Source: a virus
Lineage: Duplodnaviria > Heunggongvirae > Uroviricota > Caudoviricetes
Virus record (IMG/VR): IMGVR_UViG_3300028734_000016
Strand: one strand, 5' to 3'
Length of the DNA: 64,000 nucleotides
Both the position numbers and the translations under genes were made by a program. The notes beneath the pieces are model-generated. The model was not told the DNA's origin and did not search any database. It saw nothing but the letters and a program-made list of their open reading frames with translations. Shown piece by piece: positions 4,861 to 62,952 of this stretch (positions within the stretch are counted from its first letter, which is position 1; every line of letters starts with the position of its first letter).

Positions 4861-4888
4861 AAAAATATAATCAATTCATTAATGAAAA
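4849..4888 (+). repeat. conserved ~40-45-nt gene-junction repeat (AAATTTAAyATATGAAAAAATATAAyCAATTCATTAATGAA); copies also at ~5274, ~5634, ~6046
   Basis: four near-identical copies read directly in the sequence at consecutive gene boundaries. Confidence 0.8.
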
Positions 4889-6976: not shown

Positions 6977-7046
6977 CTTGAGAGGGATTCGAACCCTCAC
7001 TGAAACGCATTTGAAACGCCGTCCTCTGCCGTTGGGATACCAAGCC
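6975..7046 (-). tRNA. tRNA, anticodon loop UUCAAAU (CAA, leucine-type), short variable loop, A73
   Basis: hand fold: 7-bp acceptor (G1·U72), perfect T-arm GAGGG-TTCGAAT-CCCTC, anticodon stem rich in G·U; identity uncertain. Confidence 0.5.
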
Positions 7047-7047
7047 A

Positions 7048-8145: not shown

Positions 8146-8249
8146 ATTATTTTTTATTTTATATATAAAAAATTCTATGACAAAAAGAATAAAAATTGAA
8201 CATATTTTTAAATAAATTGTATCATAATGATTAATCATTGAATATATTG

Positions 8250-8337
8250 TACTCCTGGTCGGACTTGAACCGACACGCCTACTATTGTTCAGCACATGTT
8301 TCTAAAACATGGATGTCTACCATTCCATCACAGGAGC
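8250..8337 (-). tRNA. tRNA-Leu (anticodon TAG), type II with long variable arm, A73
   Basis: hand fold: acceptor GCTCCTG/CAGGAGT, D-loop GGAATGGTAGAC, anticodon stem CATGT/ACATG loop TTTAGAA, T-arm GTCGG-TTCAAGT-CCGAC. Confidence 0.85.
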
Positions 8338-8346
8338 GATTTTTTG

Positions 8347-8433
8347 TACCGATGACGGGACTTGAACCCGTATAAGCATATAGCTTGCAAAATTTTAAGT
8401 TTTGAATGTCTACCAAGATTCCATCACATCGGC
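8347..8433 (-). tRNA. tRNA-Leu (anticodon TAA), type II, A73
   Basis: anticodon stem CAAAA/TTTTG loop CTTAAAA; ~16-nt variable arm; T-arm ACGGG-TTCAAGT-CCCGT. Confidence 0.85.
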
Positions 8434-8441
8434 ATATTTTG

Positions 8442-8521
8442 TACTCCTAGAGGTATTCGAAACCTCATCCAAATGGACATCATCTTAAGTGATGCGTGTA
8501 TACCAATTCCACCATAGGAGC
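8442..8521 (-). tRNA. tRNA, anticodon TAA (leucine-type) with only ~11-nt variable region, A73
   Basis: acceptor GCTCCTA/TAGGAGT, Leu-like D-loop GGAATTGGTATAC, anticodon stem CATCA/TGATG loop CTTAAGA, T-arm GAGGT-TTCGAAT-ACCTC. Confidence 0.6.
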
Positions 8522-9269: not shown

Positions 9270-9626
9270 TTAATTATTTGGGCCAACTTCTTCAATTCCA
9301 ATTGTTTTCAAATAACTTAAGCATTCGAATTCAGTTTTAAATTTTATTGGTTTATAAGAGTTATTATAATCTCCTTTTATTTTTCTTGTTTTTTTGAAAT
9401 TTTTATAGAAATCATCATTATCAACTTTGTATATAACATCATGATCATCAAAATATGGAAATTCATAACTAAAATAATTAGAATTAAATAATGTGACATA
9501 TATTTGTTTTTGTCTTGTTTCTACGTTACAAAGTAATCTTATATTTTCATATAATTTTTCGTGCTGTTGTTCGTGTACTGTTTTTATTTTGCTAGATGAT
9601 ATTACATCTTTGGTATAATCAATCAT
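9270..9626 (-). CDS. hypothetical protein
   Basis: 118-aa ORF. Confidence 0.5.
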   Translation of the reverse strand: MIDYTKDVISSSKIKTVHEQQHEKLYENIRLLCNVETRQKQIYVTLFNSNYFSYEFPYFDDHDVIYKVDNDDFYKNFKKTRKIKGDYNNSYKPIKFKTEFECLSYLKTIGIEEVGPNN

Positions 9627-9868
9627 ATATTATTTAAATTTTGTAATTTTTCTTTTCTTATATTATTCAATTTTAATTTTTTTTTTAAAATAGTTAATTC
9701 CTTGTTCAACTCAGCTCTACTATTTATAGTGTCTATATATTCAGAGTTACTTATGTAGTGGCTATTTACCTTTAACTCCAAACCAAATATTCTATTTACC
9801 TTTAACTTCAAACCAAATATTCTATTTTCTATAAATAATATTCTATTGTAAATATCTTTTGATGTCAT
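9623..9868 (-). CDS. hypothetical small protein with ...IRKEKLQNLNNI tail
   Basis: 81-aa ORF; internal direct repeat (RIFGLKLKVN x2). Confidence 0.45.
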   Translation of the reverse strand: MTSKDIYNRILFIENRIFGLKLKVNRIFGLELKVNSHYISNSEYIDTINSRAELNKELTILKKKLKLNNIRKEKLQNLNNI

Positions 9869-13515: not shown

Positions 13516-14010
13516 CTATTTTATAATTTTTAATTTAAATTTTCTTAATGACGTATAGGTATAAAAATAATTATCATAATCAATTCTTTCAACTCTTGAT
13601 TTTTCTATTGCTACTTTATCTGATATTACTGAAACTATAAAAGATGAAATAAATATTAATCTTTGGTTTGATATGCCGTTAAATATATTAAATGAATTAT
13701 CGTTTTTGAAATATTTACACAAAAAAATAACAGTACAATTTGAATTAGAATCTACAAAAGAATAATCAAAAATAGATTTTGTCATATCCTCAATAAAAAT
13801 AACAGTTTTTTCACGTATTTGGTTTGTTATACTTTGTAATTTTTCAAAACTACTAATATAATTTATAGTTTTTATTTTATATTTCATTTTTAATAAATCT
13901 TCTTTGATCATCATCAAGAACCATTTATTATTAGCATTTGAATCCATTATGAATGTTATTTTTTGTCCTTCATATCTTTTTATATTATTTATTAAATCTT
14001 TATATACCAT
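13516..14010 (-). CDS. hypothetical protein
   Basis: 164-aa ORF. Confidence 0.5.
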   Translation of the reverse strand: MVYKDLINNIKRYEGQKITFIMDSNANNKWFLMMIKEDLLKMKYKIKTINYISSFEKLQSITNQIREKTVIFIEDMTKSIFDYSFVDSNSNCTVIFLCKYFKNDNSFNIFNGISNQRLIFISSFIVSVISDKVAIEKSRVERIDYDNYFYTYTSLRKFKLKIIK

Positions 14011-14115: not shown

Positions 14116-14634
14116 TTATAAATCTCTATTTAATTTATCAAGTTTAATTTTTCTGACTTCTTTTATAGTATCACTATATGAAAGATTGTTTTTACGTTCA
14201 GTCCAAACTCTATTTTTAATATTATCTCCTGAATTGTCATAGCATGATTTGCATATAATAGAAATCCAACCTTTTGTTGAACCAATATCTTCAGTAGAAC
14301 CACAAAACTCACAAACACTACCAGACATATTTTCTGTCATACTTATCATACCATCAATCTGTGAATTGCCTCCATAATAATAGAAACAAAGAATTCCAAA
14401 TTTTTCTTTTACTTGTGATGCTACAACTTGCGGAATTTTTTCATCATCAGATAAAAACTTATTATTAGTATCTATATAACTTTGAATAGAATAGCATAGT
14501 TGATCTAATAACCAAAACCATCCATCACCATGTTCAAACCCCCAACACATTGCAGTCTTGGTCATATTTTCATACCGATTTACAAAAATTTTAGGATATT
14601 TTTCAACTAAATAGCTATCTAAATTTTCAGTCAT
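14116..14634 (-). CDS. hypothetical protein, immediately downstream of clpP
   Basis: 172-aa ORF abutting the clpP stop. Confidence 0.55.
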   Translation of the reverse strand: MTENLDSYLVEKYPKIFVNRYENMTKTAMCWGFEHGDGWFWLLDQLCYSIQSYIDTNNKFLSDDEKIPQVVASQVKEKFGILCFYYYGGNSQIDGMISMTENMSGSVCEFCGSTEDIGSTKGWISIICKSCYDNSGDNIKNRVWTERKNNLSYSDTIKEVRKIKLDKLNRDL

Positions 14635-14635
14635 A

Positions 14636-15391
14636 TTATTTTACTTGTTTAAATACATATTTCATATAATATTCATCAAAACCATCCATCATAGTTGTAA
14701 TTGAATTGGATTTATTATCAGCTAATCCAATGACATTATCTATCAAACCATAATTCAAAGCTTCATCAGAATTTAACCACATATCTCTTTGACAAAAATC
14801 ATGAATTTCTTCAAATGACTTGTCAGTATTAAGAGCAAGAATTTTGAATAGTAAAAAATTGTATTTTTCAGTTTCCATTTGACTAATACGAGTATCATCT
14901 ACTTTGCCACTAGTTCCTGCTGCAACGTGATGTAGCATAACTGTTGAATTAATTAATGATGAACGCTTACCTTTTGCTCCAGATGATAGAAGTACACTAC
15001 CCATTGAAGCGCACATTCCTAAATTGACTGTGGCTACATTAGGTTTAATATAGTTCATAACATCTATGATTCCTAACCCATGAGTCACACTACCGCCTCC
15101 TGTATTAATTTGCATTGTAATGTCCTTTTGAGGATCAGAATCTTCTAAATATAATAATTGTGCTTGAATAATATCAGACATTGTATCATCAACGTCACCA
15201 GACACCCATAAAATTCTATCCATCATAAGTCTATCAAACACAGATAGTTGAGTTACATTCAATTGTCGTTCTTCTAAAACATGAGGAGATAAGCCATAAT
15301 TTTCAGCTTGATATTTTGTTGCATCATCTACTAATGTAGAACTCATTCCTAAATGTTTGGTAGCAAACTTTTTAAATTCATTTTTGTGCAT
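14636..15391 (-). CDS. clpP: ATP-dependent Clp protease proteolytic subunit ClpP
   Basis: GMCASMGS (Ser), MLHHVAAG (His), ILWVSGDVDD; full-length canonical ClpP. Confidence 0.9.
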   Translation of the reverse strand: MHKNEFKKFATKHLGMSSTLVDDATKYQAENYGLSPHVLEERQLNVTQLSVFDRLMMDRILWVSGDVDDTMSDIIQAQLLYLEDSDPQKDITMQINTGGGSVTHGLGIIDVMNYIKPNVATVNLGMCASMGSVLLSSGAKGKRSSLINSTVMLHHVAAGTSGKVDDTRISQMETEKYNFLLFKILALNTDKSFEEIHDFCQRDMWLNSDEALNYGLIDNVIGLADNKSNSITTMMDGFDEYYMKYVFKQVK

Positions 15392-17034: not shown

Positions 17035-17579
17035 ATGTCTACGTTTATTATTATATTTGGTGTATATTTTTCTTCTATTGAATTAATATAATATTTATTT
17101 TTTGTATAAGTTATATTATAATTGGTTGTTTTATTATCATCATATCCAATTATTGCAATTACAACAATATCATCAATAGTGAAAATAGCGTCAATTCTAA
17201 TATAATTGTGAATTCTCTTATAATGACTTTCTAATTCAGTACAATATTTTTTATTGTTGTCACATATTTCTTTTTCCAAAGTTGAAATAATATTCAGTTC
17301 GTGTTTTATATAATTCAAATTTTTATAAATACTGCGTAAATAATTTTTACTTGATATTGATGTTTTTAATCTTTTGATATTTGGAATATCACGATTTGAA
17401 TAATATTTTACTACTGATTGATTATTTTTTTTTTCAATTAAAATATTAATAATATAATCTAAGTTATTTGAATTATAAAAAAATGATATTTTTTTTTCAT
17501 GACAACCTACAAATTCAACATCAAAATTCTTTTTGAATATATATTCTTCTATTTTTTTTATAGTCTCTGTGTCAGTCAT
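17031..17579 (-). CDS. hypothetical protein
   Basis: 182-aa ORF, ATGA overlap with upstream gene. Confidence 0.5.
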   Translation of the reverse strand: MTDTETIKKIEEYIFKKNFDVEFVGCHEKKISFFYNSNNLDYIINILIEKKNNQSVVKYYSNRDIPNIKRLKTSISSKNYLRSIYKNLNYIKHELNIISTLEKEICDNNKKYCTELESHYKRIHNYIRIDAIFTIDDIVVIAIIGYDDNKTTNYNITYTKNKYYINSIEEKYTPNIIINVDI

Positions 17580-18282
17580 CAGTCATCAGTTTAATAAGTT
17601 TTTCTTTTCTTATTATTTTAGTTATATCATTGCTAAACGTCTTGTTTGTTTCAATTTTTGAAATTAATGCTAATTTTTTTGACTCTCCATCATAATATAA
17701 CTGTAATAATATATTTGAATTATTATTATTTAAAAATACTGAAATATTATATCTTGAATAATGTTCTAATGATGTGTCAAATAATTTATCATTATATGTT
17801 TTTTTGCTATTTATTCTTAATATACTATTTTTTGATGAAAATTGAATAGTTATATAATCAGAATGAAATCCTCTAACTGAAAAATCATTATACTTTAAAT
17901 CATCATAATGATTATATGTTTTTTTAATATAATTATTTATTGTATCTTTTATACCTATTTTATCAATTTCTCTTTTTTGTATATAAATATCTAATTTTAT
18001 AATCTTTTTTAAAAATGTTTTGAAACTAGATATGATTTTTTTTTCTACACAAAAATCATTAATAATAGTAAATTCTAACTCTTTAATATCTGAAAATGGA
18101 TGACAGTTAAAAAAGGAGAACTTATAATCATCAGTGACAGATATAATATATTCTGATTCATTTATAATATATTTTATTTCTGCAAATGAAGAATATCTAA
18201 CATTTGAATTTGTTTCCCCAAAAATCAAATTTGGAAATTTTCCTGAATTTCTTAAAATATTATATACTTCTAATGATGTCAT
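17572..18282 (-). CDS. hypothetical protein
   Basis: 236-aa ORF. Confidence 0.55.
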   Translation of the reverse strand: MTSLEVYNILRNSGKFPNLIFGETNSNVRYSSFAEIKYIINESEYIISVTDDYKFSFFNCHPFSDIKELEFTIINDFCVEKKIISSFKTFLKKIIKLDIYIQKREIDKIGIKDTINNYIKKTYNHYDDLKYNDFSVRGFHSDYITIQFSSKNSILRINSKKTYNDKLFDTSLEHYSRYNISVFLNNNNSNILLQLYYDGESKKLALISKIETNKTFSNDITKIIRKEKLIKLMTDD

Positions 18283-20320: not shown

Positions 20321-21121
20321 TTATATTTTAACTTTTACCTGTTCTGTGTTCCTATTAATTGCATTAGATATGCTATAAAATTCAGGAAAGTCTAATGATT
20401 TTTCCATACTAACAAATGAATCTATCGTGCCAGGAGAAATATCTTTAACGTAATTTGAAAATTTATTAGTAGCATCCTGTATAGCTAATTGTCTTGTTTT
20501 CATTGTAGGTGTAAAATAAAACTCATCTTTAAATGCTTGAGACATTAATCCAATAAAATAACAGCAATCTAAATAATTTTCTATTTGATCAGTTGATTCA
20601 AATTTAAATAATTGATTATATTTTTGAATATTTGTCAACATTATATTTTTATCATCAGAATCTAGTACATTATCAATTATATATCTAACTGAAGAACGAA
20701 TTGTAGTTGGTTCATGTCCTCTTGTTGTAATAATCGCAAATAATCTTCCTTCTTTTAAAGTTGATAGTAATGATTTCCATGATGGTCCGAAGTCTTTATT
20801 TTTTATTGCTTTTTTGATATCATCAAGTAGTGAATTATCTCCTCTTGCTCCGCTGTCTACAAATTCTGAAAAAGTATATTTAGTATCAGCTTTCCATTCA
20901 TTATTATCTATATAATTATCTGGATATTTTTCACGTATTTTAGAAAAATCTTGTATTGATATGTCTTTATTTATCCATTTGTCATTTTCAAAATGTTGAA
21001 AGTGTAAAGGAGTATTCATGATAAGCAAATTATCATCAATATCAAATATAGAATATTGTGAATTACCTACACTTTGTTGCTCTAAAATAAATGAATTCCA
21101 ATCTTTGACTATTTTGCTCAT
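20321..21121 (-). CDS. hypothetical protein
   Basis: 266-aa ORF. Confidence 0.55.
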   Translation of the reverse strand: MSKIVKDWNSFILEQQSVGNSQYSIFDIDDNLLIMNTPLHFQHFENDKWINKDISIQDFSKIREKYPDNYIDNNEWKADTKYTFSEFVDSGARGDNSLLDDIKKAIKNKDFGPSWKSLLSTLKEGRLFAIITTRGHEPTTIRSSVRYIIDNVLDSDDKNIMLTNIQKYNQLFKFESTDQIENYLDCCYFIGLMSQAFKDEFYFTPTMKTRQLAIQDATNKFSNYVKDISPGTIDSFVSMEKSLDFPEFYSISNAINRNTEQVKVKI

Positions 21122-21447
21122 TATAAATTAAATTTTTTTGTAGATTTATACAATTCTGTATCTTTCATATATTCAACTATATCATTATATTCTTCGTCTG
21201 TTATAGATATTGTACCTTTTTGATAATTTTTCAAGGCAAAAGATATTTTATAACCGCCTGGTTTAAGTGAACTTTTATATATGCTGTCTGATTTTATAAT
21301 AAAATCAGGTGAATTTTGAAATCCGTGATTTTTTCTAAATTCATCATTTGTATTTACATAATCATCAACAACTCTCATCATATTATCATAATATCGATCT
21401 AATTGAATTTTCTTTGAATAATATTCGCCAAAACTATATACTGTCAT
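21121..21447 (-). CDS. hypothetical protein (ends ...KKFNL)
   Basis: 108-aa ORF. Confidence 0.5.
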   Translation of the reverse strand: MTVYSFGEYYSKKIQLDRYYDNMMRVVDDYVNTNDEFRKNHGFQNSPDFIIKSDSIYKSSLKPGGYKISFALKNYQKGTISITDEEYNDIVEYMKDTELYKSTKKFNL

Positions 21448-21495: not shown

Positions 21496-22341
21496 TTAAA
21501 CAGATGGATTTTTCAATAATTTTGTTTTAATAAATTCTTCATCAATTTTAACTAATTGAATATCATGTGAGTTTATATAATCATCAATTTCAGTGTTACC
21601 TTCTTTTTTTAATTCTCCCATTATATTCCAAACATTCGAATAATCATTATCACCTTTTGATTTCTCAGAAATTAAAAGGTTAGTTACAATTTTTCTTTTT
21701 CTTTTTTCGTCTGAAGGAATATTTTCTAGTATCTTTTGATACAAGATATCTCCTCTGAAATACTCATTAAAGTTATTGTAATAATGTGTTGGATCGAATA
21801 TCATAATCTTCATTGATAAACCTTTATTATTATTAAATGCATACCAATCTTTTTCTCTTTCGTTCCATTCATCTTCTGATACATTTTCATCTGCATCACA
21901 TTGATTTTGACAATACCAATCTGTTAGAAATTCTAAAAGAATTTTTCTATGCTCTCCTACATTAATATTAGGAAACACTAATATTTTATCATTTTTACAA
22001 TCAATTGATAAACTAAGATCAACCATAAATTCATTTTTGTATTGTCCTTTTGATAATATGTTACCAGCTTGAAATAAATAAGAAATTACTGTTGTGTTAT
22101 CTTCAATTGAGATGTTTTTTATTTCATTTTTTATTGAATTGATTTCATTGATAGCTGAATATTCCATTTGATGAATAATATTACATTTTTCATCAACATG
22201 TAATATAATATTTCTAGCATAACACTTTGCTAATTCATTTTGTGATGCTCCTTCAAATCTATCAAATCTTTTCAAAATTTCTTCTTGTATATATGCTAAA
22301 CCATTTCTGGTCATCATGCCATCATATGCTTTTAAACTCAT
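21496..22341 (-). CDS. hypothetical protein
   Basis: 281-aa ORF. Confidence 0.55.
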   Translation of the reverse strand: MSLKAYDGMMTRNGLAYIQEEILKRFDRFEGASQNELAKCYARNIILHVDEKCNIIHQMEYSAINEINSIKNEIKNISIEDNTTVISYLFQAGNILSKGQYKNEFMVDLSLSIDCKNDKILVFPNINVGEHRKILLEFLTDWYCQNQCDADENVSEDEWNEREKDWYAFNNNKGLSMKIMIFDPTHYYNNFNEYFRGDILYQKILENIPSDEKRKRKIVTNLLISEKSKGDNDYSNVWNIMGELKKEGNTEIDDYINSHDIQLVKIDEEFIKTKLLKNPSV

Positions 22342-22601
22342 AATTCTTTATTTATATTGTTTAATTCTTTCAATTTGAATTTTCTTAATTCAGAATATTT
22401 TATAAATCTTTGCTTTCGAAAACTAAATCCTGGTATTTCAAATAAAGCAATTTCTCCATAACTATTTATGTTATTAAATGTATAAATATTACCAATTTTT
22501 AATAATCTTAAAGAGCAGTAGCCTAATTCCGCTCCAGTGTATTTTGATGTATTATCAATGCAAACAAATTTTTCACCTTTTTTATATTGAATTGATTTCA
22601 T
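22338..22601 (-). CDS. SH3-like small-protein family member (YKKGEKFVCIDN...LRKFKLKELNNI)
   Basis: alignable by eye with 24160, 24404 and 28346-29203. Confidence 0.55.
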   Translation of the reverse strand: MKSIQYKKGEKFVCIDNTSKYTGAELGYCSLRLLKIGNIYTFNNINSYGEIALFEIPGFSFRKQRFIKYSELRKFKLKELNNINKEL

Positions 22602-22603
22602 AT

Positions 22604-22828
22604 TTAATATTCTAGTTTTTCTCTATTATTTTTTAGATATTTATAGATACTTCCGAATATTTTATAAAAACTACCAATTTCACATATTACTTTTCTATTC
22701 TCAATTATCATTTTAACTAACTTAGATTGATTACCTGTCAAATTTTTTATATTTGATTCTTTAACCCAGTTAGAATATATTTCATTATCTTTCATATTCA
22801 AGTATATTATTTCACAAATATACAACAA
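22604..22828 (-). CDS. hypothetical small protein
   Basis: 74-aa ORF. Confidence 0.4.
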   Translation of the reverse strand: MLYICEIIYLNMKDNEIYSNWVKESNIKNLTGNQSKLVKMIIENRKVICEIGSFYKIFGSIYKYLKNNREKLEY

Positions 22829-22846
22829 AAAATTGATATAAAAAAA

Positions 22847-23209
22847 TTATTTATTTTTTATATCAATTATTGTATTAAATAATTTGTTAAATTTAGATTT
22901 CAAATCATTTAAATCTTTTTCGTATTCATTCATTTCATCTATAACAGCATCTATATCGCAGAAGAAATATTTATTGTTGTGTTCTATTTTTGAGTTTTTG
23001 AACTCTGTTTTATTTAATGGAAAACATAATCCAGTACCTTCAAAATCTTTATCATTTGCTAATCTTTCAACATAATAACCAATTGCTACTGCATATCCTA
23101 TATTATCAAAACCTATACATTTTGTTTTAATAAAACTATTTATATTATCATTATAATATTCTAAAATATATATTGGCTCTCCTACCAATAAATCTGTCCA
23201 TTTTTTCAT
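22847..23209 (-). CDS. hypothetical protein
   Basis: 120-aa ORF. Confidence 0.5.
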   Translation of the reverse strand: MKKWTDLLVGEPIYILEYYNDNINSFIKTKCIGFDNIGYAVAIGYYVERLANDKDFEGTGLCFPLNKTEFKNSKIEHNNKYFFCDIDAVIDEMNEYEKDLNDLKSKFNKLFNTIIDIKNK

Positions 23210-23220
23210 AATTTATAAAA

Positions 23221-23463
23221 TTAAAATTCATCATAACACCAAATTGGTGTGTGTTCTCCCATATAAGCACCAGCGGTATTGAATTCAAAGAATTCTAATG
23301 CTTCTTCTTCTGTCATACCATCAGTAATAAATATTTCTATACATTTTGATACTGAGTAAATTAATCTCATTGAATTCATTTCTAAACCAATTACTGCATC
23401 ATCCAAACCATCAGCAGATAATATTCCTTCATCTGGATAATTGTTTATAATTTCTTCTAACAT
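23221..23463 (-). CDS. hypothetical small protein
   Basis: 80-aa ORF. Confidence 0.45.
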   Translation of the reverse strand: MLEEIINNYPDEGILSADGLDDAVIGLEMNSMRLIYSVSKCIEIFITDGMTEEEALEFFEFNTAGAYMGEHTPIWCYDEF

Positions 23464-23478
23464 TTTTTACTATTATTT

Positions 23479-23913
23479 TCATATTATCAATTTACCATTG
23501 ATATGATCAAATTGATGTTGAACAGCTATTGAGTTCAAATCTTTTAATGTCAACAATTTATAATTCCAATTTATATCATAATATTTAATCATAACAATTG
23601 ACCTTCTATTAATAGGAAATTCCAAATTAGGTAAACTTAGACATCTCTCCTTATTTTGAATAAAAAGTCCATCAAGATATATTTCTGGATTAATAAATAC
23701 TTCCTTTAAATCAGGATTATCAATTATAAATAAATTTAAATTGTGTCCAACTTGAGGAGCAGACAATCCAAATTCAAATTTGTGATAATTAAGAGTTTCA
23801 AACATGTTTTTGATTAAGGAAAGTAGAAATGGATTCTCCTTTTTTACGTTCACGTTTATTTTTCTTAATTTTCCTGAGTTTAAATCATCATATTTAATTA
23901 TATCTAAAATCAT
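23479..23913 (-). CDS. def: peptide deformylase homolog with HQxDH in place of HExDH
   Basis: motif 1 GLSAPQVG, motif 2 ERCLS (metal Cys present), motif 3 QHQFDH; codon 23512-23514 is CAA (Gln) where the catalytic Glu is expected. Confidence 0.8.
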   Translation of the reverse strand: MILDIIKYDDLNSGKLRKINVNVKKENPFLLSLIKNMFETLNYHKFEFGLSAPQVGHNLNLFIIDNPDLKEVFINPEIYLDGLFIQNKERCLSLPNLEFPINRRSIVMIKYYDINWNYKLLTLKDLNSIAVQHQFDHINGKLII

Positions 23914-24131
23914 TTACCGTGCTTCTTTTCTTTCTTCTTTTCTTTAATTTCAGATTTCTCAATCGTCTTTTCTTCTAATTTCTCAGATGTTTCTGATTTG
24001 AAAAAATCCTTATATTCTTTTTTTGAACAATATTTCCATCCTTGTTCAATGTAAGATTTTATTGATACAACATCATTTATACTAGCATCAGGTAATTTCT
24101 TAAAGGTGTCTTTTTTTCTTAAAATTTTCAT
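23910..24131 (-). CDS. hypothetical small lysine-rich protein
   Basis: 73-aa ORF. Confidence 0.4.
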   Translation of the reverse strand: MKILRKKDTFKKLPDASINDVVSIKSYIEQGWKYCSKKEYKDFFKSETSEKLEEKTIEKSEIKEKKKEKKHGK

Positions 24132-24159
24132 ATCCTATTTTATTTTTATTATTTATATG

Positions 24160-24414
24160 TTATACTAAATTTAATCTATTTAGTTTGTCTTTTCTTTCTT
24201 TTCTTTCAAATTCATTGGGTGACAAAAACATTGTTCCTAATGGATTTACAAATAATACATGTTTTGCGTCAGATAATATTCTAAAATGATCTAAGTTAGT
24301 TATTTTTCCTTTGTAAATACAACAAATTTCATATGTTTTACCAATTGTTAAATATTTTTCATATCCTCCTGTATTATCAATACACACAACTTCATCTCTT
24401 TTTTTAAAATTCAT
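24160..24414 (-). CDS. SH3-like small-protein family member (...ERKDKLNRLNLV tail)
   Basis: RDEVVCIDNTGGYEKYLTIGKTYE core. Confidence 0.55.
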   Translation of the reverse strand: MNFKKRDEVVCIDNTGGYEKYLTIGKTYEICCIYKGKITNLDHFRILSDAKHVLFVNPLGTMFLSPNEFERKERKDKLNRLNLV

Positions 24415-24676
24415 TTGATAATAAATTATTTATATTTTCTAATTTTTCTTTTCTTTGAATTTTTTTATATTCAGTAGTTGATATAAATCTACTTAAAAAA
24501 ACAGTAACTCGTCCTTCATCAAAATCATCTGATTTTACTTGAACATGATAAGCACCATCTATTTTATCAATATACATAACTTTATAAGATTCTCCAATTG
24601 TTAATGAATTTTCATATCCTCCATCATTTCTAATACAAATAACTTTATCTCCTTTTTTATAATTTGTGTTATTCAT
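24404..24676 (-). CDS. SH3-like small-protein family member (...QRKEKLENINNL tail)
   Basis: KGDKVICIRNDGGYENSLTIGESYK core. Confidence 0.55.
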   Translation of the reverse strand: MNNTNYKKGDKVICIRNDGGYENSLTIGESYKVMYIDKIDGAYHVQVKSDDFDEGRVTVFLSRFISTTEYKKIQRKEKLENINNLLSNEF

Positions 24677-24696
24677 TCAAACCTAATTTTTTAAGG

Positions 24697-25413
24697 TTAT
24701 TTATCTACCAATTTTTTTCTATCTTCACTCAAATAATTTATAAGCAATTCTGACGCTTTTATTGAACCTGGAGTAGTTATACTACCAAGATACATATCTA
24801 ATTCAGGATATTGTAAATATATCGGTAATTCTTTATTTAAATTGAAATCTAAATTATTTTTATGAAAAAAATCTAATTCAGATAATGACATTTTAAAGTA
24901 ATAATTATCTTCACTAAAATATTCTTTTGTCATTCCTGACTTAAACATTGTTCTCAATATAATATAGACTACATCATTTTCAAAATCAATTTTTTCTATA
25001 AAAATATCATTACGATCACATAATGTACCAAATGTATATTTTTTATCCAATATTATATTTATATGATTACTTGATTTTAGATATTCATAATAGCCATCAT
25101 TAATATCTTTTTTCTCTTCTTCATTTAAATCATTATACCCTACACAAATCAAATCTGATGGTGAATTATAGCAACCTTTATTTCTATATGATGTTATAAT
25201 AGAACTCTTTATTTCAGAAGCAGATAATTTATCTTCATCGCTTAGAAAATTGGTATTTCTATGAGTAATATTTTGTTGAATATATTTCTTTATAAAAGAA
25301 TAATCCAAATCTTCAAATTTTAAAGATAAATCTAAATTTTCTTTATTGTGTTTACTTTCTAATTCCGCTGATTCTTTTTTAAAATCTAAGTGATGTTGAA
25401 AAAAATTATTCAT
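24697..25413 (-). CDS. hypothetical protein
   Basis: 238-aa ORF. Confidence 0.55.
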   Translation of the reverse strand: MNNFFQHHLDFKKESAELESKHNKENLDLSLKFEDLDYSFIKKYIQQNITHRNTNFLSDEDKLSASEIKSSIITSYRNKGCYNSPSDLICVGYNDLNEEEKKDINDGYYEYLKSSNHINIILDKKYTFGTLCDRNDIFIEKIDFENDVVYIILRTMFKSGMTKEYFSEDNYYFKMSLSELDFFHKNNLDFNLNKELPIYLQYPELDMYLGSITTPGSIKASELLINYLSEDRKKLVDK

Positions 25414-25672
25414 TTTTAATATTTTTTAATTTGTTGAGTTTTTCTATTCTTTCTTCTTTTAATCTTGCGATCTTATTTTCTCTTGATTCTATAAGATCTG
25501 ATATTGTTGTAGACATCATTATATAAGGAACAAAAATATATCCTTGTTCTAATGATCCTGTTGAACCAGAAACAACACTATTTGTATTCGCACTTACTGA
25601 AATATTACTATAACAATTTGGTGATATTTTAGATACACTATATCTTGATTTTACTGTTTTTAATGAATTCAA
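25406..25672 (-). CDS. hypothetical small protein (...RIEKLNKLKNIKNE tail)
   Basis: 88-aa ORF. Confidence 0.45.
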   Translation of the reverse strand: MNSLKTVKSRYSVSKISPNCYSNISVSANTNSVVSGSTGSLEQGYIFVPYIMMSTTISDLIESRENKIARLKEERIEKLNKLKNIKNE

Positions 25673-26109
25673 TCTCTATACATTAATTTTTTATTGTAGT
25701 ATATACTACCACAGGTTCCTTGTCCATATGTCATAGCAAATTGCCATCCTTTATATTCACATATATCAGACTGAAAATGTTCTGTGAAATCATCAATAGT
25801 TTCAGTAATTTCAACTCCTTCTTGTTCTGCTAAATCAAATAATGAGTTTAATAGATTAGTTGGATATGGCATACAACCATTTTTCCAGCATTTGTCTCTC
25901 CATTCATCACCATTTTTACATATTATTCTATTAACTAAAGAATCAAAAGTTTCTTGATCATTAAACATTTTTTTAATTCTTTCAATGTTATTATCCTTAA
26001 TATCTACTTCTAATTGTAATTTTGCTTTAAATTCACGAATACTTTCTTCTCCCTCAGGAGTTTTTAAAAACTCTAAATATTCGCTCATTTTCTCTGTAAC
26101 ACTTGACAT
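25669..26109 (-). CDS. hypothetical protein
   Basis: 146-aa ORF. Confidence 0.5.
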   Translation of the reverse strand: MSSVTEKMSEYLEFLKTPEGEESIREFKAKLQLEVDIKDNNIERIKKMFNDQETFDSLVNRIICKNGDEWRDKCWKNGCMPYPTNLLNSLFDLAEQEGVEITETIDDFTEHFQSDICEYKGWQFAMTYGQGTCGSIYYNKKLMYRD

Positions 26110-26127
26110 AATATTATAATTTATTTG

Positions 26128-26448
26128 TTAATCAAACCACATTCTAAAGTGGTTATTTGTTTCTTCTGAAAACTCATCAGGATGTTTTGATAAAATTAAC
26201 AACAGAAGTTTTTTGTAATTTGTGTTATCTGTTGTTTCAATATATAATGTTGACGAGAATTTATTTTCATTTTCTCCATCTTCAACATCAAAAACAATTT
26301 CTGATACACCGTATTCTTCAAGCTGTTCACAAAAAATTGAAGTCTCTCTCTCACTCCAATCTGAATATATCATATGTGTAGTGTAGTCAAACTCAACTAA
26401 TTCTCCATAATATATTCCATATTTTTCACTTTTATGTTCTATTATCAT
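26128..26448 (-). CDS. hypothetical acidic protein
   Basis: 106-aa ORF. Confidence 0.5.
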   Translation of the reverse strand: MIIEHKSEKYGIYYGELVEFDYTTHMIYSDWSERETSIFCEQLEEYGVSEIVFDVEDGENENKFSSTLYIETTDNTNYKKLLLLILSKHPDEFSEETNNHFRMWFD

Positions 26449-26450
26449 AT

Positions 26451-27128
26451 TTATAATTTTAATTTTTTGACTCCTTTTGTTGCTGTTTCTTTAATATGAG
26501 TGAAATTTCGAATATCAATACCAACATCAGAATCAGATGGATCAATATAATATGTGTGTGTTCTGAAATTTACTTTATATAACAAATTTGCTGCAGGATA
26601 AACTTGTAATGATGTTCCAATTACAATAAGAATATCTGCTTCTTTTGTTAATTTTTCAGCTTTACCCATATTTGGTACATCTTCACCGAACCAAACAATA
26701 TGTGGTCGTAATGTATCACCATTTTCATCTACACTATCTGTTTGAATATCAAAGTCTTTTGGCCAATCATAAACAGTATTATTGTTAAATGCTCTCATCT
26801 TTGTTAATTGTCCATGGAGATGTAACACATTTGTACTGCCTGCTCTCTCATGTAAATCGTCCACATTTTGCGTCACTATCTGAACATCATATTTCTGTTC
26901 TAATTCAGCAAGAAAGTAATGTGCAGAATTAGGTTCTACTGTATCTAATTGTTTATGCCTTTCATTGTAAAATTTTAATACCAATTTTCTATCTTTCCTC
27001 CAACCATCAATCGTTGCGACGTCTTTAACATCATATTGCTCCCAAAGTCCGTCAGAATCCCTGAAAGTTTGAATTCCGCTTTCTGCACTTATTCCAGCAC
27101 CAGTAAATACTACTATTTTCTTTTTCAT
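26451..27128 (-). CDS. cobB: Sir2-family NAD-dependent deacylase (CobB-like sirtuin)
   Basis: GAGISAESGIQTFRDSDGLW, QNVDDLHERAG, LHGQ; 225 aa. Confidence 0.85.
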   Translation of the reverse strand: MKKKIVVFTGAGISAESGIQTFRDSDGLWEQYDVKDVATIDGWRKDRKLVLKFYNERHKQLDTVEPNSAHYFLAELEQKYDVQIVTQNVDDLHERAGSTNVLHLHGQLTKMRAFNNNTVYDWPKDFDIQTDSVDENGDTLRPHIVWFGEDVPNMGKAEKLTKEADILIVIGTSLQVYPAANLLYKVNFRTHTYYIDPSDSDVGIDIRNFTHIKETATKGVKKLKL

Positions 27129-27132
27129 AATA

Positions 27133-27396
27133 TTATTGTATTTCTTTTAATTTAACTAGTTTTTCTTTTCTTAATATATTATTTGCATTATTATAATATT
27201 TAGAATATTTGAGTTCACTAAAATATTTATAATTAATCCAACTTTGATTAGGTGGCTCATAATCCATATTTGGTAGAAATGGTATAGAATCTTTATAATC
27301 TTTCACATAATCTTGGACCAAAAGATAATATGCAATGTCATCAAGTCTTGTTGGATTTATCAAATCCCAGCAGCCCCAACCTTTATCTATTTTCAT
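27133..27396 (-). CDS. hypothetical small protein (...RKEKLVKLKEIQ tail)
   Basis: 87-aa ORF. Confidence 0.45.
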   Translation of the reverse strand: MKIDKGWGCWDLINPTRLDDIAYYLLVQDYVKDYKDSIPFLPNMDYEPPNQSWINYKYFSELKYSKYYNNANNILRKEKLVKLKEIQ

Positions 27397-27786
27397 TTAA
27401 AATTCAACTGTATTTACCATTCTTAAATATAATGGCAATTTTTGGTGTAATTCTTTTCTATATTTAATAAAAATATTATTTATATTTAAAAAATCCTTTT
27501 TTTCAATAATTTTAACTAAATAGTAATCATATTTAACTGACCATTGTCCTAAAGTATTATCAATGAACGTGTTGTTTTTTGATATGTTAACAAAATGTAT
27601 AATACAATTATCACTATTAATACAAACACACATACCAACAGTTGGTTGATTGCTACTTAGTGCGTCATTAACAGCATTCATTTGACATCTGAAATTATAT
27701 CTACATCTACCACTTTTAACGTTTATTTTTGTCGCCGTGTGAATGATATGTTCTTTAATACACTGAGTTGATTTTTTATCTAACAT
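27397..27786 (-). CDS. hypothetical cysteine-rich protein
   Basis: 129-aa ORF. Confidence 0.5.
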   Translation of the reverse strand: MLDKKSTQCIKEHIIHTATKINVKSGRCRYNFRCQMNAVNDALSSNQPTVGMCVCINSDNCIIHFVNISKNNTFIDNTLGQWSVKYDYYLVKIIEKKDFLNINNIFIKYRKELHQKLPLYLRMVNTVEF

Positions 27787-27792
27787 ACTTAT

Positions 27793-28371
27793 TTATTTTT
27801 TAGGATTATATAATTCTTTTAAATCTTTAGGAATAGGTATCAAATGCCAAAAGCCGTCATCATCAATTGTGAAACTTTCTGGTTTCATGGAATAATAGCC
27901 CCATGTACAGAATCCATTACATTCATTATTTTCACAAGTATTTGTAAACTTATTCTCAATACCCCAATCTTGTCCACATAGAACGCAAATTAATTTTTTT
28001 TCTGGCTCATCAACAAAAATATCATCTGATGATTTGACTATATTTTTTAATTTATCTCTTCTCTCATATTTTATTGAATACATAAATCTATTTATCGTGC
28101 TCCAAATTTTTTTATTTCCGTCATTTAAAATTTTAATTTTGCCTTTTTTATGATCTAATATTTCATATGATTTACCAATTGTTAAATCACAATGACTAGA
28201 TGAATTATAATATCTAATATCTGAGCAGTAGTTTTCGTTATCAAAACATATGTATGTTTTTCCTATTACGCAATATTTATCAGATAATATGGATCTTTTT
28301 AATATTTTTCTTTTATCAAATTGATTCTTTTCTAAAAAATCAGGATTATTTAACCACTGCTGAAGTATCAT
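27793..28371 (-). CDS. hypothetical protein containing SH3-like family-type segments and a Cys-rich C-terminal half
   Basis: 192-aa ORF; CVIGKTYICFDN and LTIGKSYEILDHKKGKIKIL resemble the small family. Confidence 0.55.
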   Translation of the reverse strand: MILQQWLNNPDFLEKNQFDKRKILKRSILSDKYCVIGKTYICFDNENYCSDIRYYNSSSHCDLTIGKSYEILDHKKGKIKILNDGNKKIWSTINRFMYSIKYERRDKLKNIVKSSDDIFVDEPEKKLICVLCGQDWGIENKFTNTCENNECNGFCTWGYYSMKPESFTIDDDGFWHLIPIPKDLKELYNPKK

Positions 28372-28591
28372 TCAATTGAATTAATTTTTGTTTTCTTGTA
28401 TATTGTTTATCTAATTCTGAATATTCATCTAAATATTTAGATTCAATAGATTTTTTCCTTACTGTATGAACTGATTTATTTGCTGGTATATCATGACTAT
28501 ATACATAATTATCATTTAAAATTTTTAATATTACTATTTTAAATACCATACCTTTTGTACCAACAACAACAGCTCCAACTTTATATCTCAT
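28346..28591 (-). CDS. MKYKVGD-type SH3-like small protein (tandem array member 1)
   Basis: MRYKVGAVVVG...TRKQKLIQLN. Confidence 0.6.
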   Translation of the reverse strand: MRYKVGAVVVGTKGMVFKIVILKILNDNYVYSHDIPANKSVHTVRKKSIESKYLDEYSELDKQYTRKQKLIQLNDTSAVVK

Positions 28592-28784
28592 TTAATTTTA
28601 TTAATTTTTGTTTTCTCATTGATTTAATATCCAATTCAGAATTATAGTCTAAATAATCGAAATGTACACGTTTAGACAAATTCAGACTTTTATTATCTAC
28701 ATAATAATAATATCCATCCCAAATTTTTAATATTACTAATTTACTATTCTTTCCGTCTACAATATCACCAACTTTATATTTCAT
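28581..28784 (-). CDS. MKYKVGD-type small protein (array member 2)
   Basis: MKYKVGDIVDG...MRKQKLIKLNEI; 11-nt overlap with next gene. Confidence 0.6.
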   Translation of the reverse strand: MKYKVGDIVDGKNSKLVILKIWDGYYYYVDNKSLNLSKRVHFDYLDYNSELDIKSMRKQKLIKLNEI

Positions 28785-28989
28785 ATAATTGTTTCAATTT
28801 TTCTTTTCTAGTAGATTTGATATCTAATTTTGATTCATTGTCTATTATTAATGCGTTGTAGTTGTGTACAAATTTTGATATTTCATTTAAATAATTTATT
28901 ACACAATATTTATATTCGTCATATTCATAAGATAAAATCATTATTCTAAAATAATCACCTATAACAATATCTCCAGCTTTATATTTCAT
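28774..28989 (-). CDS. MKYKVGD-type small protein (array member 3)
   Basis: MKYKAGDIVIG...TRKEKLKQLYEI. Confidence 0.6.
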   Translation of the reverse strand: MKYKAGDIVIGDYFRIMILSYEYDEYKYCVINYLNEISKFVHNYNALIIDNESKLDIKSTRKEKLKQLYEI

Positions 28990-29203
28990 GTAATTTATAC
29001 AATTTTTGCTTTCTCATAAATTTAATATTCAATTCTGTTTGATTTTCTATATAATCATAAGTAATGATATGTGTATCATCATTATCAAGAAATCTAAATT
29101 TATACTGAGGTTTTTTGTGAGTATAAATCATAATATCTAATATTATTGATTCACTATCATACATTTGTTTAAAATAAATAATGTCTCCTACTTTATATTT
29201 CAT
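28979..29203 (-). CDS. MKYKVGD-type small protein (array member 4)
   Basis: MKYKVGDIIYF...MRKQKLYKLHEI. Confidence 0.6.
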   Translation of the reverse strand: MKYKVGDIIYFKQMYDSESIILDIMIYTHKKPQYKFRFLDNDDTHIITYDYIENQTELNIKFMRKQKLYKLHEI

Positions 29204-29699
29204 TTAAACATTTCAATTTTAATGCTCTTATTTCTTTATTAGAAAAAATATTCAATTTTGTTTCATTGATAATATATGAAAATAATTTATTTTTAGTTAA
29301 TTCATATCTATTATCTATAGATATTGATTTTATAACGCTTTCTATATCAGATATTTCTCCAAATTGTTCATTGATAAATAGTTTATTTTTATCATAGCTA
29401 TATTCTAATGTCATATATATGTCAAATATTGGCTCACCATAAACATTATTATGAGTACTTTCTAAATAATCTCCTACTATTCTATCAAAACAATTGGACA
29501 AATAGCATAAATAATTTTCTAATAGAACTGATACAAATTCAGTTCCAGTAAAATCATCAACTTGTCTACGTAAGAAATTTTCAGTGAACCATTTTTGAGG
29601 ATTAATATCAGTTTCAGATGAAATGTTGTCTATTATTTCTAATTGATGTTTTACTTTTTTGTTCATCCAAACATTAAATGTATCTTCAAATGTTGTCAT
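29193..29699 (-). CDS. hypothetical protein heading the array (...IRALKLKCLNEI tail)
   Basis: 168-aa ORF; TAtcTTTGta box at 29725-29734 upstream. Confidence 0.55.
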   Translation of the reverse strand: MTTFEDTFNVWMNKKVKHQLEIIDNISSETDINPQKWFTENFLRRQVDDFTGTEFVSVLLENYLCYLSNCFDRIVGDYLESTHNNVYGEPIFDIYMTLEYSYDKNKLFINEQFGEISDIESVIKSISIDNRYELTKNKLFSYIINETKLNIFSNKEIRALKLKCLNEI

Positions 29700-31767: not shown

Positions 31768-31799
31768 AAAAAAGATTCATAATTTATGAATCTTTTTTA
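31768..31799. terminator. hairpin AAGATTCATAA-ttt-ATGAATCTT + T6 between convergent genes
   Basis: read directly. Confidence 0.55.
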
Positions 31800-32257
31800 T
31801 TTATATTATAAAGTTTAATTTTTCTTATGAATTTCTTATGATTTTTTGCTGTGACAACAATCATTTTATCATATTTAAATTTTACGCATAGCTTCTTAAT
31901 TTCTTCTCCTTTTATTGAAGTTTCTAAATCAAAATCAAGAAATCCTACAAATTCAACGAATGAGAATTTTTTCAAAAATGTAATGTAATTAATTGTACCA
32001 TCCTTTTTAAAATTTGATATTTCTAAATAATCTAATACAGCATTTTCACTAATCATATTATTTATAAAACTGAAAGGAATCAAATCTTCTTCATAAAGAT
32101 TAAGATTAAAAATCATGATATCATTTTTAATAGAAATACAATTATCACGCATATATGCATCATTGAATTTAACTTCAAATAAACTTTTATAAATAGCATC
32201 AAAATTATAATGATAATGATAATGATAATGATTTCCTGGAAACTGTTGTAATGGCAT
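31784..32257 (-). CDS. hypothetical protein (HYHYHYHY near N-terminus)
   Basis: 157-aa ORF. Confidence 0.5.
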   Translation of the reverse strand: MPLQQFPGNHYHYHYHYNFDAIYKSLFEVKFNDAYMRDNCISIKNDIMIFNLNLYEEDLIPFSFINNMISENAVLDYLEISNFKKDGTINYITFLKKFSFVEFVGFLDFDLETSIKGEEIKKLCVKFKYDKMIVVTAKNHKKFIRKIKLYNINKKDS

Positions 32258-32275: not shown

Positions 32276-32518
32276 TTAAATATTATTTAATTTTTTAAGT
32301 TTATCTCTTCTAATATTTATAATATCAGTACTCAGAATTTTATATGTATTTTCTCTTATCTCATTTCTGACTTTTTCTGTATCAAATTCAAAAAAATAAC
32401 TACTTATCATATTTTCTATTTCTACCTTTTTTCTATTGAATAATTTAATTGATTCTACATCTATAGTAAGTTTATTCATTCCATTACCTACACCAATATT
32501 TATATCTAATGTTATCAT
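32276..32518 (-). CDS. hypothetical small protein (...RRDKLKKLNNI tail)
   Basis: 80-aa ORF. Confidence 0.45.
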   Translation of the reverse strand: MITLDINIGVGNGMNKLTIDVESIKLFNRKKVEIENMISSYFFEFDTEKVRNEIRENTYKILSTDIINIRRDKLKKLNNI

Positions 32519-33364: not shown

Positions 33365-34075
33365 TTAATCTTTTAATGACTTAAGTGTACTTAATTTCAA
33401 TCTTCTAAATCCATAAGATGCATCAATAATATCTAAATATAATCCATAATAATTATTAGATTCTTCTATTATATTTTTATATTTTTTGTATAACGAAATG
33501 TCTTCTATGTAATTGTTCACTTTAAATAACAAATCTGTTTGTTTCTCATTGTATGTATTTAGTGATGTTAGTGTTTCATTTGATTTATTTAATATATCGT
33601 CAAAATTATCGTCACAAATATTAAGGGTATAAATTTTATTTATGAAAAAATTGTTCTTGATATTATTATATATATTTTGAATATTTTTTGAATCTTCAAT
33701 TAGTGTTATATTTAAAGTTTCTATATTTTTGTTTGCGGATATTAAATTTATTTTTGATCTAACATTTTTAATTGAATCAATAACATAATAATATTTCTTT
33801 CTGGATTGTATTATATTATCTGTATATTCATATTCATTTTTTGTACCAAGAGATAAATATATTTTACCTTTATTGCATTCCATTTTTGATATGATTATAT
33901 TTATTTGTTTTTCTGAGAATTTTTCTGTCTTCCAAGTTTGAACTTTGGATATATCTTTAGTGAATACAAACGTATTATATTTTTCTGTGAGTCCACCATA
34001 TGAAAAATAAAAAATTCCAAATTCTGGGTGATTTATTCTTATTGCACACTCATTATTTATTTTTATCTTAGACAT
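33365..34075 (-). CDS. hypothetical protein
   Basis: 236-aa ORF. Confidence 0.55.
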   Translation of the reverse strand: MSKIKINNECAIRINHPEFGIFYFSYGGLTEKYNTFVFTKDISKVQTWKTEKFSEKQINIIISKMECNKGKIYLSLGTKNEYEYTDNIIQSRKKYYYVIDSIKNVRSKINLISANKNIETLNITLIEDSKNIQNIYNNIKNNFFINKIYTLNICDDNFDDILNKSNETLTSLNTYNEKQTDLLFKVNNYIEDISLYKKYKNIIEESNNYYGLYLDIIDASYGFRRLKLSTLKSLKD

Positions 34076-36070: not shown

Positions 36071-36095
36071 ATTTTTAAATCTACTCTTTTTTATT
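36061..36095. terminator. bidirectional hairpin AAAAGAGTAGAT...ATCTACTCTTTT + T-run
   Basis: near-identical copy at 56481-56514. Confidence 0.6.
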
Positions 36096-36504
36096 CATTT
36101 TTAAATTTCTTCAGTCTTTTAATATCATCTTTCAAATCTTTACTATAATATTTAATTAAAAATTCAACATCACTATTTTTTATTTCATAGTAATCTTTAA
36201 TTAAATTTATATCATTATTATTAAATTCTGATTTTATTTTATTTTTTGATGGTTGTTTTGTTTTCCACCACCAATCAGGTGTACCATTTGTTGTACCATA
36301 AAAAATCTGATACCAAATATCCAAAGATGATGATTTGTCAATATTTTTATTGTTGAAAAATTGAGCCTTTCTTATATCTTTATAAGCAAACTTTCTATTC
36401 AATACAAAAAAAGCATCTTTTTTCTCATCATCTGTTATAAATTTATACTTATCTTTATCTTTAAATATAATATTTGCAAGTGTTATGAAATCTACTTTCG
36501 CCAT
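36091..36504 (-). CDS. hypothetical protein
   Basis: 137-aa ORF. Confidence 0.5.
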   Translation of the reverse strand: MAKVDFITLANIIFKDKDKYKFITDDEKKDAFFVLNRKFAYKDIRKAQFFNNKNIDKSSSLDIWYQIFYGTTNGTPDWWWKTKQPSKNKIKSEFNNNDINLIKDYYEIKNSDVEFLIKYYSKDLKDDIKRLKKFKNE

Positions 36505-41207: not shown

Positions 41208-41459
41208 TTATTGTATGATATAATTATTAGAAAGTTTATTTATTTCTAATTGATTTATTTTTTTTGCCCTAATTTTTCTGTTTGCATTTTTATAATATTT
41301 ATCGTCATCTTTATAATACATACGAAAAGTTTTTTGATCTAAATATGGAGAACCTTTTAAATATTTTTCATTAAATTCAATAAGATACAATTCATATGAT
41401 ATATTATCAATTTCTGTTGAATTCTCTATATTCCATTTGCCGTTATTTTTAGCTTTCAT
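41208..41459 (-). CDS. hypothetical small protein
   Basis: 83-aa ORF. Confidence 0.4.
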   Translation of the reverse strand: MKAKNNGKWNIENSTEIDNISYELYLIEFNEKYLKGSPYLDQKTFRMYYKDDDKYYKNANRKIRAKKINQLEINKLSNNYIIQ

Positions 41460-62468: not shown

Positions 62469-62469
62469 T

Positions 62470-62907: not shown

Positions 62908-62952
62908 TAATATAAAAGATGATAATTATTAGTAAAGGTTATATTTTTTTTG

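Follow-up and report, generated by a model that had tools for sequence, protein, structure and literature searches.

A short conserved C-terminal tail on many dissimilar small proteins of an AT-rich megaphage

We noted that about one in five genes in a 64,000-nucleotide stretch of the Caudoviricetes virus record IMGVR_UViG_3300028734_000016 (the window) encode the same short peptide close to the C-terminus of the protein, and that the genes with this tail include two families of small proteins with a predicted SH3-like fold. The consensus drawn from 44 distinct tails is h(−1) R0 K1 x K3 L4 x x L/I7 N8 x I10, where R0, K3, L/I4 and L/I7 are fixed by the search pattern itself. R0 is found 8–20 residues from the C-terminus and the trailing residues are variable; internal copies of the motif are seen in the window gene 27793–28371 and in L005, one of the related loci described below. 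The tail is selected as protein, and we give a probability of about 0.5 to the reading in which it is a docking or tethering helix for one shared partner.

A preliminary description of the window, in which the tail was first noticed, named K/N/I/E-rich composition as what might account for it. The counts reject this. With whole-protein shuffles as the reference, the pattern R[KR]xKL has 17 matches in 104 greedy open reading frames (ORFs) where 0.59 are expected, and 16 matches lie 25 aa or less from the C-terminus where 0.07 are expected. When the C-terminal 25-mers alone are shuffled, 16 ORFs carry the pattern against 0.19 expected, and the maximum reached in 5000 shuffles was 3. A genome of 23% GC with lysine-rich C-termini (14% K) is where a chance product of a K/N/I/E/L-rich proteome might be looked for, but the invariant arginine is rare in the window proteome (2.6%) and AT-rich control phage loci (24–27% GC, 119 genes) hold 0–1 tails each: 0/47 genes in L013 (a 501-kb contig, 24% GC), 1/28 in L015 and 0/44 in L039. 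Chance is therefore left with next to no probability. The motif discovery on C-termini that had been suggested also recovers the tail: an unbiased gapped three-residue scan of the last 20 aa returned just two themes, R..KL..L(N) and KFN[ILV]-COOH.

The carriers in the window, with their strand and the position of the tail core, are as follows:
22338–22601, − strand: SH3-like family A, 87 aa; tail core LRKFKLKELN, 22359–22385
24160–24414, − strand: SH3-like family A, 84 aa; tail core ERKDKLNRLN, 24169–24195
24404–24676, − strand: SH3-like family A, 90 aa, AlphaFold model; tail core QRKEKLENIN, 24428–24454
27793–28371, − strand: family A core, internal tail and Cys-rich C-terminal domain, 192 aa; ERRDKLKNIV, 28036–28062
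28346–29203, − strand: four-gene tandem array of SH3-like family B (28346–28591, 28581–28784, 28774–28989 and 28979–29203)
29193–29699, − strand: 168-aa protein unrelated to the array, with an 11-nt overlap with the first array gene; ends IRALKLKCLNEI, core 29202–29228
27133–27396, − strand: 87-aa protein directly upstream of Sir2, body weakly related to 41208–41459; tail LRKEKLVKLK, 27145–27171
25406–25672, − strand: 88-aa ORF with a TTG start; tail ERIEKLNKLK, 25424–25450
14116–14634, − strand: Zn-ribbon protein, 172 aa, immediately downstream of ClpP; tail VRKIKLDKLN, 14128–14154, after a variable linker
13516–14010, − strand: 164-aa protein; tail LRKFKLKIIK, 13519–13545
17572–18282, − strand: 236-aa protein adjoining the NAD ligase; tail IRKEKLIKLM, 17584–17610
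9623–9868, − strand: 81-aa protein; tail IRKEKLQNLN, 9632–9658
31784–32257, − strand: 157-aa protein, next gene convergent; tail IRKIKLYNIN, 31799–31825
32276–32518, − strand: 80-aa protein; tail IRRDKLKKLN, 32285–32311
33365–34075, − strand: 236-aa protein, next gene convergent; tail FRRLKLSTLK, 33380–33406
2836–3030, + strand: 64-aa protein; tail LRKIKLKKLE, 2992–3018
47207–47932, + strand: 241-aa protein; tail KRADKLNNIL, 47891–47917
41208–41459, − strand: 83-aa protein; weaker tail IRAKKINQLE, 41244–41270, 20 aa from the C-terminus

This list departs in part from the earlier one. Of ten minus-strand ORFs that had been named as unrelated carriers, nine have the motif but 36091–36504 (...IKRLKKFKNE) is without it, and 2836–3030 (+), 17572–18282 (−), 47207–47932 (+) and the weaker 41208–41459 (−) had been missed. 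The SH3-like ORFs, at least seven of which had been given a C-terminal tail, do have it, except that in 27793–28371 the motif is internal (at aa 104 of 192); a 119-aa homologue of this protein, P0007, ends just past the tail. In L001, a syntenic relative of the window, the orthologue of 32276–32518 has the motif 35 aa from the C-terminus.

When the tails were removed, the bodies of 21 carriers sorted into family A, family B, one weak pair (27133 and 41208) and 11 singletons of 64–241 aa, with no mutual similarity outside the two families and the pair. By this comparison the carriers belong to ∼14 unrelated groups. Pfam and PHROGs searches with at least 20 tail carriers, including those of the related phage LR745206, gave no domain and only weak SH3-type hints; the longest carrier tested was no more than 242 aa. 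A profile of the tail only, run against 1.84 billion representative proteins, returned just three proteins of the array family at E < 1e-3 and nothing new, and another tail profile had no meaningful match among PDB sequences. We found no known motif family matching the tail, and no description in the literature of a megaphage C-terminal motif of this type.

The modular character of the tail is most clearly seen in the Zn-ribbon protein 14116–14634. Of the 120 best homologues, 76 have the tail, ending in ...KELRKIKLDKLN (median length 171 aa), and 44 are tail-less and shorter (median length 149.5 aa), with little sequence beyond the ribbon. In the tailed set KELRKIKLDKLN is 71–100% conserved, comparable to the Zn-ribbon core, whereas the 13 residues preceding it are gapped and only 8–51% conserved. 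In this family the tail is joined to the domain via a variable linker. Together with the unrelated tail-less bodies, the existence of homologues with and without the tail bears out the earlier suggestion of a portable C-terminal module. The family has the signature GDGW...KEKFG...CxxC...CxxC, and its gene follows that of ClpP in four divergent megaphage contigs (window 14116–15391, L009 9123–10513, L010 9318–10480, and L012). In ∼17 loci of other phage clades the Zn-ribbon family has a different tail, ...LLK[EQ]G[FY]E[EQ] (e.g. ...LLKEGFEE). This was considered as a second shared tag and rejected, being limited to one protein per locus with no other gene there having it.

The two SH3-like families had been described as a single family of eight ORFs with a YKxGD...LTIGKxY core. 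The YKxGD strand and the tail are indeed common to them, but the full core (CIDN...LTIGKxY) is present in 22338, 24160, 24404 and 27793 only, which make up family A. When the tail-less cores of families A and B were compared with hhalign, 10 columns were aligned with a probability of 47%, covering the N-terminal YKxGD strand only, so that A and B are two sequence families rather than one. In family B the ends are conserved (MKYKVGDIV...SELDIKSxRKEKLxKL) and the middle is hypervariable. For both families, homologues were found nowhere but on metagenome contigs of this phage group, and each of them retains the tail.

AlphaFold models built from homologue alignments support the SH3-like assignment made earlier. 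For the family A protein 24404–24676 the model has five strands and a helix at 67–89 that includes the tail (pLDDT 87.8), and for the family B protein 28581–28784 it has four strands, a short helix and a helix at 53–66 that includes the tail (pLDDT 86.6). A barrel of 4–5 strands in ∼60 residues, as predicted in both, is what defines an SH3-like fold. Foldseek matched the two models to the MRG15 chromo barrel, Tudor, SH3, PWWP, NdhS, PsaE and the ribosomal SH3-like barrel (probability ∼1.0, E 1e-2 to 1e-4), and also to many uncharacterised small phage proteins, with BFVD matches at E ∼1e-4. Small SH3-like, Tudor or chromo-barrel phage proteins such as DUF4314, phrog_4927 and PF24203 likewise have a small beta-barrel followed by a helix, but those families have no described RKxKL tail and no assigned function. 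phrog_4927 matches family A at E = 6e-5. PF24203 (Phage_ProQ_C_like) matches 2/13 family members, with a best E of 0.0057; 24404–24676 itself scores 14.4 bits (E = 0.063) where the gathering threshold is 27 bits, so that it falls outside that family.

To place the tail in a wider context, we compared related and control loci, with expectations taken from shuffles. The numbers of C-terminal tails are:
L001 (syntenic relative): 13, with 0.14 expected
L009 (531-kb contig, 26% GC): 6, with 0.19 expected
L010: 6, with 0.17 expected
L012: 4, with 0.06 expected
L005 (LR745206): 6, with 0.28 expected
L008 (LR745206): 5, with 0.23 expected
L007 (LR756502): 2, with 0.23 expected
T4, first 50 kb: 0, with 0.33 expected
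79 control loci, 2247 genes: 8, with 4.3 expected

The 79 control loci are IMG/VR loci with tail-less Zn-ribbon homologues, and they include the AT-rich L013, L015 and L039; by these counts the tail is absent from T4 and from the control loci. LR745206 (634 kb) and LR756502 (642 kb), deposited as 'uncultured phage' genomes, are the closest deposited DNA relatives of the window (the ligase has ∼68% identity), and their tail follows a variant pattern, R-[DN]-x-K-[IL]-x-x-I-[LI]. Between the window and LR745206, no orthology of the ligase-adjacent carriers was detectable. These counts show that a clade of AT-rich megaphages has conserved the tail, in variants that differ between lineages, and the motif offers a cheap sequence marker for that clade.

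The window (23–24% GC) itself is a piece of a megaphage of this clade with a genome of ∼700 kb, given that proteins identical to those of the window recur on metagenome contigs, the longest of 711,471 bp, that LR745206 and LR756502 are its relatives and that its gene starts are A-rich. No Shine-Dalgarno signal was found at window gene starts, where GGAG, GAGG and AGGA are at or below background; positions −16 to −10 are 60–71% A and poor in G. A-rich starts lacking a Shine-Dalgarno sequence are typical of hosts without Shine-Dalgarno-led initiation, such as Bacteroidota.

The conserved peptide might be the by-product of a nucleic-acid signal, either one serving the downstream gene (an A-rich initiation region or a promoter) or a recombination junction. 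The tandem array gives this its best footing. The genes 29193–29699, 28979–29203, 28774–28989, 28581–28784 and 28346–28591 (all on the − strand) overlap successively by exactly 11 nt, as the preliminary description had found, and the ATG of each next gene sits within the ...L-N-E-I-stop codons; a further overlap of 26 nt joins 28346–28591 to 27793–28371. At the junction a 57-nt direct repeat is present in 4 copies (74–82% identity, spacing 193–214 nt), and family B has four copies in the window and three in L001, so copy number differs between relatives. In addition, K3 (AAA) in the array occupies positions −16 to −14 relative to the next gene, in the A-rich region that is present in a genome with no Shine-Dalgarno motif, and the last 11 nt are common to the MKYK start of that gene. 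This overlap, however, accounts only for the terminal -NEI of the array genes.

Several features of the DNA speak against such a signal. The codons used for L4 vary (TTA 6, TTG 5, CTT 4 and CTA 3), where TTA makes up 60% of leucine codons genome-wide, and the distance from the R codon to the next ATG ranges from 25 to 144 nt. For two carriers, 31784–32257 and 33365–34075, the next called gene is convergent, so there is no downstream start codon to be served. Where 1.3 matches are expected, 14 were counted for the DNA pattern AGAAAANNNAAAYTD; of the 14, 13 coincide with in-frame tail cores and the fourteenth, by coordinate arithmetic, is out of frame; no out-of-frame or intergenic excess of AGAAAANNNAAAYTD was seen in the window. 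Moreover, the amino acids are kept in genomes of 23–31% GC, with the x positions differing. Nor did we find the frame-independent conservation of a DNA cassette like the T4 PeSL, junction DNA being conserved in the tandem array only. It is thus the protein that is under selection, as shown by the varying L4 codons and start-codon spacing and by the lack of any excess of the DNA pattern out of frame or between genes; the nucleic-acid explanation is largely refuted and we consider it very improbable.

The spacing of the conserved residues points to a helix. By helical-wheel arithmetic the conserved positions face away from the variable positions 2, 5, 6 and 9, which share one side of the helix, and the periodicity of information content peaks at 100–110 degrees, a value to be read with four positions fixed by the search pattern. 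The tail is thus predicted to be one face of a C-terminal alpha-helix, on which the invariant R0 and K3 share a face with L4 and L7. The mean net charge of the tail is ∼+3 in the window and ∼+0.7 in the LR745206/LR756502 variant, so the basic character noted in the preliminary description is not conserved. The loss of net charge in the variant speaks to some extent against generic DNA or membrane binding; a membrane-targeting helix of the MinD/FtsA type is net-positive with a purely hydrophobic face, and the tail has a net charge that differs between lineages and R0 and K3 on the L4/L7 face. A two-helix motif of the SAP/HeH or Rho-N-like kind was considered and dropped, as the conserved turn glycine and the first helix are absent and the hydrophobic register is different.

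The earlier reading of the tail as heptad-like is unlikely, as the conserved core is merely 9–12 residues. A coiled coil is defined by at least 3–4 heptads with hydrophobic a/d positions and the conserved core here spans only −1 to 10; it is disfavoured because the core is short and Arg and Lys are on the Leu face. The helix could nevertheless be a handle for self-association, driving homo- or hetero-oligomers (a small helical bundle) for avidity or co-assembly with no separate hub. It is amphipathic, with Leu/Ile at i, i+3 and i+6/7, it lies within a predicted 23-residue helix in family A, and small phage proteins are frequently oligomeric. We think this rather unlikely: the core amounts to less than two heptads, the placing of invariant R0 and K3 on the Leu face of the helical wheel is atypical of a coiled-coil core, and promiscuous mixing would be expected among dozens of co-expressed carriers.

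We favour, at the roughly even odds given above, a helix that docks its carriers on one shared partner. The conserved face (R0, K3, L4 and L7 with the flanking hydrophobics) would fit into a groove of a single partner common to all carriers, be it a phage or a host protein, while the variable N-terminal domains would supply differing activities or targets. This would suit a tail that is attached to ∼14 unrelated kinds of small proteins and, in at least one family, via a variable linker. Several points weigh against such a role. It is inferred from the architecture of the carriers. The apparent conservation of the tail is partly circular, since R0, K3, L/I4 and L/I7 are set by the search, and the raw counts are inflated by paralogues, though ∼14 independent body types remain. 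Between orthologues of the window and L001 the identity of the tail (72%) is barely above that of the body (67%). The carriers are in compact operons, and a tail of little function could be passed around there by recombination at the conserved junctions. Finally, database searches cannot put so short a motif to the test, as the profile searches of proteins and PDB indicate.

Megaphage genomes consist mostly of ORFans without a functional handle, and a conserved peptide on ∼20–30% of small genes would provide one. If the partner of the docking helix were found, dozens of uncharacterised proteins would together be assigned a common destination or pathway, and the tail would be a potential natural, minimal and portable docking tag.

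The preliminary description had suggested virion packaging among other roles. In such a reading the tail would be an addressing signal that directs its carriers to virion packaging, co-injection or a compartment, by binding the inside of the capsid, a scaffold or some transport machinery. One terminal peptide on many unrelated small proteins is reminiscent of cargo-loading systems, and a genome of up to ∼711 kb would require a very large capsid. However, the genes around the carriers are of an early or metabolic kind (ligase, deformylase, Sir2 and ClpP) and not a structural module, and no protease site, scaffold or shell gene is linked to them, which leaves an addressing signal unlikely. The cargo peptides of encapsulins and microcompartments are also short terminal peptides (an amphipathic helix in microcompartments) joined via a variable linker to unrelated cargo, but their consensus is another one and has no counterpart to the invariant Arg and Lys of the tail. 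The tail has no GSLxIGSLK-like consensus, and no encapsulin or microcompartment shell gene was present among the window proteins scanned with Pfam. The capsid-targeting sequence of T4 is likewise a short phage-encoded peptide that addresses unrelated proteins to one destination; it is N-terminal and removed by the prohead protease, whereas the tail is C-terminal with no known cleavage site, and the T4 genome shows no enrichment of the tail motif.

A Clp system is encoded in the window, with ClpP at 14636–15391 (−; PF00574 E = 1.7e-54), ClpS at 52967–53260 (−; PF02617 E = 2e-15) and a two-ring ClpA/C-like ATPase of 842 aa at 50154–52682 (−), which has a Clp_N domain and an IGF ClpP-docking loop at aa 690–692. 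The homologous ATPase of LR745206 (L011 2887–4992) is 701 aa and has no N-domain.

Through the tail, the carriers could be tethered as adaptors to the ClpA/C-type unfoldase; alternatively, the tail could be a mark for their timed degradation. ClpP, ClpS and an ATPase with the docking loop are all at hand, LR745206 and LR756502 also encode the ATPase, and the gene straight after ClpP in four genomes is that of the Zn-ribbon protein, where the strongly conserved tail follows a variable linker. This domain-linker-peptide layout is that of SspB, whose XB motif docks adaptors onto the ClpX N-domain; like the XB tether, the Zn-ribbon protein has a short conserved peptide at its C-terminus, connected to a folded domain by a linker of low conservation, and the phage encodes a Clp system. 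In contrast, the tail is unlike the LRVVK-type peptides, is predicted to be helical and occurs on ∼14 unrelated proteins. It has no sequence likeness to known ClpX-, ClpA- or ClpC-binding peptides, and LR745206 has the tail variant yet its ATPase is without the usual adaptor-binding N-domain. With R0 8–20 residues from the end and the motif sometimes internal, the tail is not a terminal degron of the ssrA or MuA type, in which the free carboxylate is part of the signal (LAA-COOH, RRKKAI-COOH). We regard a link to Clp, attractive as the gene content makes it, as improbable.

A similar logic is seen in the poxvirus ankyrin/PRANC (F-box-like) proteins, multigene families of a large virus in which variable target-binding domains are combined with a short C-terminal helical hub module. 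Those proteins belong to the eukaryotic ubiquitin system and the module is longer (∼40 aa), so the likeness is an analogy of logic rather than homology. The logic of the tail thus resembles that of portable terminal peptide tags, but it does not fit the definition of the SspB tether, the cargo peptides, the T4 capsid-targeting sequence or PRANC.

A wider proposal, which we put forward tentatively and hold to be possible but doubtful, is that the largest phages known use the tail to address proteins. A ∼10-residue helix would route many unrelated effector domains to a single hub, either the capsid interior for co-injection or the phage Clp machine with the carriers as a library of degradation adaptors, and the lineage variants (K1/N8 in the window, D1/L8 in LR745206/LR756502) would co-evolve with the hub. 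Extrapolation from the density in the window suggests well over 100 carriers per ∼700-kb genome.

The second theme of the C-terminal scan is distinct from the tail. The motif ...[NK]-K-F-N-[ILV]-COOH is found on 12 otherwise dissimilar proteins, one of them ankyrin-repeat-like, where C-terminal shuffles give 0.02. Its sites in the window are 3588–6976 (+), 21121–21447 (−) and 61636–63820 (+), and it was seen in the window and L001 only. In the array at 4393–6434, ∼40 nt of junction DNA and the MKKYNQFINE head of the next gene are conserved while the bodies differ.

Other genes of the window include a T4 gp9/10-like baseplate N-domain, an NAD-dependent ligase, homing endonucleases, an S1-domain protein, a fused Mre11/Rad50-like protein, collagen-repeat proteins, peptide deformylase and Sir2, in addition to the ClpP, ClpS and two-ring Clp ATPase described above. 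The Sir2-family gene (26451–27128, −; PF02146 E = 2e-46) is within the tail-rich gene cluster and lies 4 nt downstream of the tail carrier 27133–27396, an arrangement found likewise in L001. The idea that RKxKL, which resembles the RHKKL of p53, is a Sir2-linked lysine-acylation site was dropped as an unsupported coincidence.

A single 1251-aa ORF at 56518–60273 (−) encodes both an N-terminal Mre11/SbcD-like metallophosphoesterase and a Rad50/SbcC-like ATPase head, functions that T4 keeps on separate genes (gp47 and gp46). Collagen triple-helix repeats are found in a 546-aa protein at 54011–55651 (+; PF01391 E = 1e-31), and a 603-aa protein at 145–1956 (−) has the T4 gp9/10 N-terminal domain and a short collagen stretch. 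Four tRNA-Leu genes (anticodons CAA, TAG, TAA and TAA) are found at 6973–8521, on either side of the LAGLIDADG homing-endonuclease ORF 7048–8238, and tRNA-Leu(CAA) overlaps the 3′ end of ORF 6431–6976 by 4 nt. In the related loci L009 (2814–3497) and L010 (4198–4881) the release-factor gene is split or truncated, a 50-aa PCRF fragment being followed by a 136-aa RF-1 domain ORF, which may involve recoding or programmed frameshifting.

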